Below are positions 15,381-15,577 of a DNA stretch of 64,000 nucleotides, in pieces. The notes beneath the pieces are model-generated. The model did not search any database. It had not been told where the DNA came from and saw only the letters and a list, made by a program, of their open reading frames with translations. Source of the stretch: Eledone cirrhosa (lineage: Eukaryota); contig OZ024741.1 of the NCBI GenBank assembly GCA_964016885.1, positions 11,656,001-11,720,000 of the forward strand, read 5' to 3'. The translations under genes and the position numbers were made by a program. How positions within the stretch are numbered: position 1 is the first letter of the stretch; each line of letters starts with the position of its first letter.

Positions 15381-15577
15381 ACGGGGGAAATGTGGTAAGG
15401 AACCAGGTGGACCGTAACGCACCAAAGTACTCAATACTTAGGGTAGTAGAGTGGGTAATAGGAACGAGTAGGACCCCGACGGCTGAGCTCAAGCCGTTTC
15501 GACGGCTAATTCTGGACGTCCAGAATTAGCCGTCGAAACGGCTTGAGCTCAGCCGTCGGGGTCCTACTCGTTCCTAT
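15381..15577 (-). mobile_element. (TA)n-flanked fold-back element (family B): perfect 120-bp palindrome carrying an HHR 3' half on each arm, plus a 77-bp unique tail
   Basis: 15458-15517 is the exact reverse complement of 15518-15577; each arm reads GAAA-cggcttgagctcagccg-TC-gggg; second copy at 47420. Confidence 0.8.

Follow-up and report, generated by a model that had tools for sequence, protein, structure and literature searches.

A spacer-free palindrome within a tailed, abundant repeat of TA microsatellites in Eledone cirrhosa, likely a truncated Penelope-like insertion

The insert and its setting

The window analysed here, a stretch of 64,000 nucleotides from contig OZ024741.1 of Eledone cirrhosa, is animal-type repetitive DNA with satellites, a 16-kb TA-rich array and broken reverse transcriptase (RT) genes. 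About two thirds of it is filled by a 19-bp satellite (572 copies, 255-11114), the TA-rich array (20693-36984) and a 22-bp satellite (731 copies, 47886-64000), and positions 36985-37184 are a 200-N gap. A degenerate tandem repeat with subunits of ~220 bp in 630-bp blocks occupies 11115-13703. The frame-broken RT gene at 16654-18595 (with PF00078 relatives, many of which have a PHD finger) is likely an RTE-type LINE, and its best named animal match among the 120 listed is to Octopus vulgaris (65%). Two tandem copies of a broken RT element, 81% identical, lie at 39429-41151 and 41884-43587, and from the look of the protein we take this element to be L1/Tx1-like. SINE-like pieces are found at 46921-47106, 39045-39233 and 47170-47383, including an 89% identical pair and a tRNA-like head at 47170; we assume that they resemble cephalopod SINEs. 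The segment at 15707-16168, repeat-like and about 460 bp long, contains a TATA-like box as well as 28 bp duplicated exactly in tandem (15891-15946), and is possibly a solo LTR. Short imperfect inverted repeats, with arms of ~26 bp and 15 bp, are present at 19113-19182 and 15046-15076, respectively.

Within (TA)n at 15381-15577 sits an insert of 197 bp, composed of a 77-bp one-sided tail and two head-to-head arms, which belongs to a short and very abundant repeat that resides in TA microsatellites. Its parts, and two related copies in the window, are the following:

15270..15380, no strand: (TA)n target microsatellite, left flank
15381..15457, minus strand: 77-bp one-sided tail, non-palindromic; outer end is the putative first reverse-transcription start
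15458..15517, minus strand: left arm of 60 bp, running on from the tail, in sense orientation on the minus strand; identical to 47497-47556
15478..15500, minus strand: left-arm 3' half of hammerhead type, with GAAA, a stem III whose loop is palindromic, and GTC (pairing deduced from the letters)
15517..15518, no strand: head-to-head junction without spacer, 17 nt upstream of GAAA
15518..15577, plus strand: right 60-bp arm, without tail; its TAT end is the putative second start site
15535..15557, plus strand: hammerhead-type 3' half of the right arm
15575..15647, no strand: (TA)n target microsatellite, right flank
47420..47604, no strand: sibling copy with the same tail and ends, 133/137 identical up to the centre
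47644..47704, plus strand: older, diverged single-arm relative that keeps GAAA, the palindromic loop and GTC (79% over 53 bp)

A centre scan of the window identified 15458-15577 as a perfect inverted repeat, its arms being 60 + 60 bp and its spacer 0, which matches its own reverse complement at 120/120 positions. This confirms the 120-bp palindrome reported in an earlier note on this DNA, but not its extent as given there (15381-15577), of which the first 77 bp, 15381-15457, are the non-palindromic tail. The centre, GGAC/GTCC, falls between 15517 and 15518, and the right arm closes with TAT, 3 bp that run into the flanking microsatellite. In 100 first-order Markov resamples of the surrounding DNA outside microsatellites (4,339 nt), the longest arm did not exceed 11 bp (mean 7.7), against the 60 bp observed. 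The zero-spacer junction is known here from the assembly sequence, the reads that we compared having been aligned to the sibling copy. A single arm together with the tail folds no better than shuffled sequences (z 0.24). Open frames of 45-48 codons run through 15382-15526 on both strands, in the same phase.

Abundance, ends and breakpoints of the family

The sibling copy was used as the reference for the raw reads of two RAD-seq runs (X21 and X22) and for two sets of contigs. It was matched by 23,885 of 12,467,656 and 24,512 of 12,785,554 raw records, about 0.19% of reads in both runs, and by 21,901 of 17,142,217 and 527 of 762,587 contigs. These counts point to a family of thousands of copies at least, an estimate to which RAD bias applies.

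Both ends of the family are fixed in the reads. The tail end appears as (TA)n loose ends before 47423/47430 in 1071 + 1713 (X21) and 1173 + 1819 (X22) reads. For the end without tail, at 47497, the counts are 3557 (X21) and 3085 (X22) reads; a further 1167 (X21) and 1293 (X22) reads end at 47509, where the letters show an indel sub-family with that same end. The summed contig depth, which we do not take as copy number, drops from 5.2 million (47532-47538) to 168 thousand (47560-47566) and then to 4 thousand (47567-47573), and the fall past 47560 indicates that the junction of the sibling is a rare one. The raw reads stop mostly at 47550 or 47562, both of which are AATT; if these read ends are taken as the enzyme cut, typical centres are hidden in the raw reads.

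The joint counts rest on the 15 listed of 32 joint rows, 13 of which join opposite strands. One side falls at 47541-47557 of the sibling in 12 of these 13 inverted joints. This cluster, 2-18 nt upstream of GAAA, shows that breakpoints are not random, as the earlier note had anticipated. Five of the 13 are at 47556 or 47557, which is the position of the 15458-15577 centre or one base beyond. The shorter-reaching arm is the one that carries the tail sequence in all 13, in a detection that is biased against short tail-less arms. Asymmetric joints are rare (at most ~100 reads each, mostly with 1-5 read starts), and the loose ends on the centre side vary, with low agreement (0.59 and 0.77). The sibling itself shares its last 27 bp with the insert, but its junction differs, in that the hairpin is longer and has 2 mismatched nt, and that 23 bp are skipped between a pair of 7-bp direct repeats; the centre hairpin is a stable DNA fold (-23 kcal/mol for 47497-47584). 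Since such near-identical copies have different junctions, these were likely made at each insertion.

Hammerhead likeness and the other palindromic inserts

Each arm has the succession GAAA-stem-GTC-GGGG, on the plus strand at 15535-15561 and mirrored on the minus strand in the left arm, with a stem of 5-6 bp and a palindromic loop between GAAA and GTC. CTGAnGA is found on neither strand of 15381-15577, even when one mismatch is allowed. The earlier note's description of the arms holds in both respects, and from their sequence they carry a hammerhead-type 3' half in a palindrome that is not itself a hammerhead. Rfam returned no hammerhead match for the family of the insert among the 150 listed of 410 rows, and none for the sibling. 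The minimal type I hammerheads of Penelope-like elements (PLEs) resemble the arms in the C before GAAA, the A-U first pair, the palindromic loop III and GUC, whereas the insert is without the 5' core box and has a stem III of 5-6 bp instead of 0-2 bp (PMC4209133). In metazoan PLEs, hammerhead motifs have also been described in pairs on opposite strands, 100-700 bp apart (PMC4209133).

A sub-family of 1308 and 1365 reads runs past 47547 for a median of ~80 nt that match nothing in the reference; these reads continue un-inverted, so that there is no fold-back at this point. The sub-family consensus, which may be dominated by few loci, can be paired by eye with 47540-47548 as a stem II-like hairpin of 7 Watson-Crick pairs and one G-U pair, with a mismatch, a bulge and a 7-nt loop at 47549-47555. 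The hairpin would be closed at the G10.1-C11.1 position and followed by one unpaired base (again by eye, with agreement of 0.74 and 0.69), and one unpaired base likewise follows the closing pair of stem II in minimal PLE hammerheads (PMC4209133). The next 7 letters agree with CUGAnGA at 3/6 fixed positions, which is not significant. With this pairing, the centre of 15458-15577 would lie at the edge of the hairpin loop, which lends some weight, for this family, to the earlier note's placement of the centre at stem II. The un-inverted copies with CTGAnGA upstream that the same note predicted did not appear, CTGAnGA or its complement being absent from all 5 of the listed loose ends that extend beyond 47547 in the upstream direction (24 of 597 rows listed); nor did these rows yield the 5' strand of a native stem I. 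The 5' strand gacggctaatt predicted there is merely the inverted arm, which is the only partner strand for stem II within the window.

The window holds 6 large palindromic inserts in 4 families, each of the 6 being extended by an extra segment at just one side. Those at 28845-29259 and 34307-34724 are 98% identical, with 165-bp head-to-head arms and an extra 84-85 bp on one side; both have CTGATGA in one arm and CTGTTGA in the other, each followed by GAAATGCGCATA, and these common arm differences indicate that the pair is probably a local duplication. The insert at 46505-46839 has 58-bp perfect inner arms, an 8-nt spacer, the 3' half GAAACCGGTA and a 67-bp one-sided extension; it is without CTGAnGA, which makes it a second family with the 3' half alone. 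The insert at 37398-37779 is an older palindrome, with arms at 37502-37616 and 37665-37779, that carries CTGACGA (37646) and GAAA (37713) on the plus strand with a long loop II, in addition to GAAACGCGCGTC and a one-sided extra segment of 104 bp. Its inverted arm ends within the long loop II. The 48-bp spacer, which includes CTGACGA, has the orientation of the arm that lacks a putative tail, and the insert gives a weak Hammerhead_1 match (19.7 bits against a gathering score of 34). Judged from their position, the extra segments of these three families would be tails. Their midpoints are 110 (28845), 111 (34307), 51 (46505) and 72 nt (37398) upstream of GAAA, against 17 nt in 15458-15577, and those of two of the families are upstream of CTGAnGA; stem II is therefore not a general rule for the position of the centre, as the earlier note's mechanism for such palindromes would have it.

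Identity of the insert and origin of its arms

The head-to-head layout is a known kind of structure, a by-product of Penelope-like elements, and represents no new element. We conclude that the 197-bp insert likely represents a PLE terminal repeat (pLTR) that inserted with heavy 5' truncation, given that an inverted 5'-truncated copy is head to head with a direct copy, that the 77-bp tail is at one end only, with both ends fixed in the reads, and that the target is (TA)n. The assignment to PLEs rests on this layout, as no parent ORF or complete ribozyme of the family was found. The insert has no ORF for an RT with GIY-YIG, and its 45-codon minus-strand open frame gave 0 protein matches in 1.84 billion representatives and likewise 0 of 20 candidates. 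An exact 23-mer scan gave 0 matches in metagenomes, and degenerate pattern scans gave 0 in viral contigs and 0 in prokaryote genomes. Eight degenerate metagenome matches were rejected as chance (57-73% GC, a likeness of 22-28 nt and no CTGAnGA upstream).

Inverted 5'-truncated copies, with a tail at either end and targeting of (TA)n, have been described for PLEs, and the origin of the inverted structures has been called undefined (PMC8557442). The pLTRs of endonuclease-bearing PLEs are like the insert in the inverted 5'-truncated copy, the junction palindrome, the tail at one end and the TA-rich target; unlike them, the insert has no ORF, measures only 197 bp, has a tail of 77 rather than 30-40 bp and is joined without a spacer (PMC3846280, PMC8557442). 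Neptune, Hydra and Naiad share with it the insertion into (TA)n with no discernible target-site duplication; Hydra and Neptune carry canonical hammerheads and Naiads do not (PMC8557442). The supplements of the same study hold family lists that include cephalopods, and the parent may be among them (PMC8557442). Non-LTR retrozymes are also short, non-coding, hammerhead-related and probably mobilised by PLEs, but they are arranged head-to-tail with complete ribozymes, whereas the insert is head-to-head with half a ribozyme and shows no tandem head-to-tail units (PMC7229834; bioRxiv 10.64898/2026.07.22.740005). PAc, the Poseidon of Anolis carolinensis, resembles the insert in its two fixed ends separated by a tail and in its AT-rich target; the available text of that account gives no explanation of inverted repeats (PMC11167929).

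We favour, with a probability of roughly 55%, an origin from two primings, one on each target strand, the products of which were joined head to head, and prefer it to the fold-back of a single cDNA. By analogy with the biochemistry of PAc, the enzyme would nick both (TA)n strands. Each nick would then prime reverse transcription, as the ends fixed throughout the family suggest, one start being at the tail end and the other 77 nt inward of it, where TAT matches the target. The structured region immediately upstream of GAAA, where the breakpoints cluster and which is probably the hammerhead stem/loop II, would be where both cDNAs tend to end. Their 3' ends would finally be joined head to head, which here would be a blunt joint of zero spacer at 15517/15518, and elsewhere may proceed by short complementarity or leave arms of unequal length. 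Two cDNAs, one per nick, would account for a tail at one end and a fixed end without it at the other; the arms would be identical if a single RNA was used, and either arm could be the longer. The 5' half of the ribozyme would never be copied, and both arms are therefore predicted to be inactive. L1 twin priming is comparable in that two nicks prime two cDNAs, which are joined via short matches; L1, however, inverts adjacent parts, whereas the present insert has the same part twice.

The biochemistry of PAc is in line with two starts, because both target strands are cut and extended, RT starts at two internal sites, and the genomic ends with and without tail coincide with these sites (PMC11167929); the joining of two cDNAs would be our extrapolation beyond these data. 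In the present family, the tail end and the tail-less end are each fixed in thousands of reads. The 77-bp tail, on the other hand, exceeds the published 30-40 bp, and later deletions in palindromes would mimic asymmetric joints. The principal rival has one tail-primed PLE cDNA folding back on the stem II hairpin, priming itself, copying 57-60 nt and jumping to the target at TAT, with the loop lost later. We regard this course as unlikely, although it accounts equally well for the perfect identity of the arms and is in keeping with the clustering of breakpoints near stem II and with the stable centre hairpin that the sibling keeps. The tail-less end is, moreover, the first TAT downstream of the centre and would be usable by the folded-back strand to reach the target. 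Self-priming, on an antisense template, was already proposed in 2013 for inverted pLTRs that have a palindrome at the junction and may carry a tail, and is the published reading of such palindromes (PMC3846280). A cDNA ending at 15516 or 15517, however, has no 3'-terminal stem of at least 3 bp, so that the zero-spacer centre cannot have arisen by simple snap-back; a cDNA extending into the native hairpin would keep a loop at the centre, and fold-back needs an extra step to remove it. In the stable fold of the sibling the 3' end is paired to 47540-47550, from which a full arm would be expected and not the 23-bp skip. Furthermore, the tail arm is shorter than its partner in every listed inverted joint, and the partner is therefore not a copy of a tail-primed cDNA without later deletion. 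Fold-back leaves this unexplained, as it does the 37398-37779 family, where the spacer follows the arm without the putative tail, and it has a 3-nt match alone to explain a near-fixed stop 77 nt before the tail end.

A palindromic mini-element of single origin, transcribed and mobilised in trans, with centres altered by tip deletion, repair or skipping, would suit the very high copy number with common ends, the end of the family match near 47560-47563, the recurrence of the 23-bp skip in one X4 contig and the arm differences that the copies at 28845 and 34307 have in common. We hold it to be quite improbable, in view of the unrelated junctions of two near-identical copies, the varied joints and centre-side loose ends, and the reads that continue past 47547 without folding back. 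Very improbable is a (TA)n-targeting derivative of a DNA transposon, MITE-like or other, that resembles a hammerhead by chance: the family is short and abundant, with inverted repeats and with neither CTGAnGA nor an Rfam hammerhead match, but on the left the 77-bp tail lies outside the arm, so that the inverted repeat is not terminal there, there is no internal region, and neighbours of the same layout carry CTGAnGA and GAAA boxes (one with the sub-threshold Hammerhead_1 match given above). That the perfect centre is an artefact of assembly or of fold-back in the library is hardly credible. The exact junction is absent from the independent reads, which could hardly display it, and against an artefact both ends agree with the family-wide ends in two independent raw-read runs, and arms starting at the same position recur in other copies (the five joints at 47556/47557).

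Whether the same course extends to other families is a more tentative matter, and we propose as a possibility, short of an even chance, that Penelope inverted repeats arise by twin priming at the two RT start sites of one RNA, with stem II of the hammerhead as the shared stop and joining point. A search of openly accessible papers listed no twin-priming account of Penelope inversions and no description of the present family, in octopus or otherwise. Being abundant and short, with two fixed ends and varied junctions, the family provides numerous natural replicates with which self-priming could be distinguished from two-start priming, and is also suited to asking whether the ribozyme fold sets the stop of the cDNA. 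If twin priming is true, thousands of 200-bp stubs with scorable junctions could decide between it and fold-back from genome sequence alone. For repeat annotation it is relevant that such palindromes mimic microRNA hairpins and disturb assembly; the Rfam microRNA matches that we obtained, far below gathering scores, reflect a likeness of shape only.
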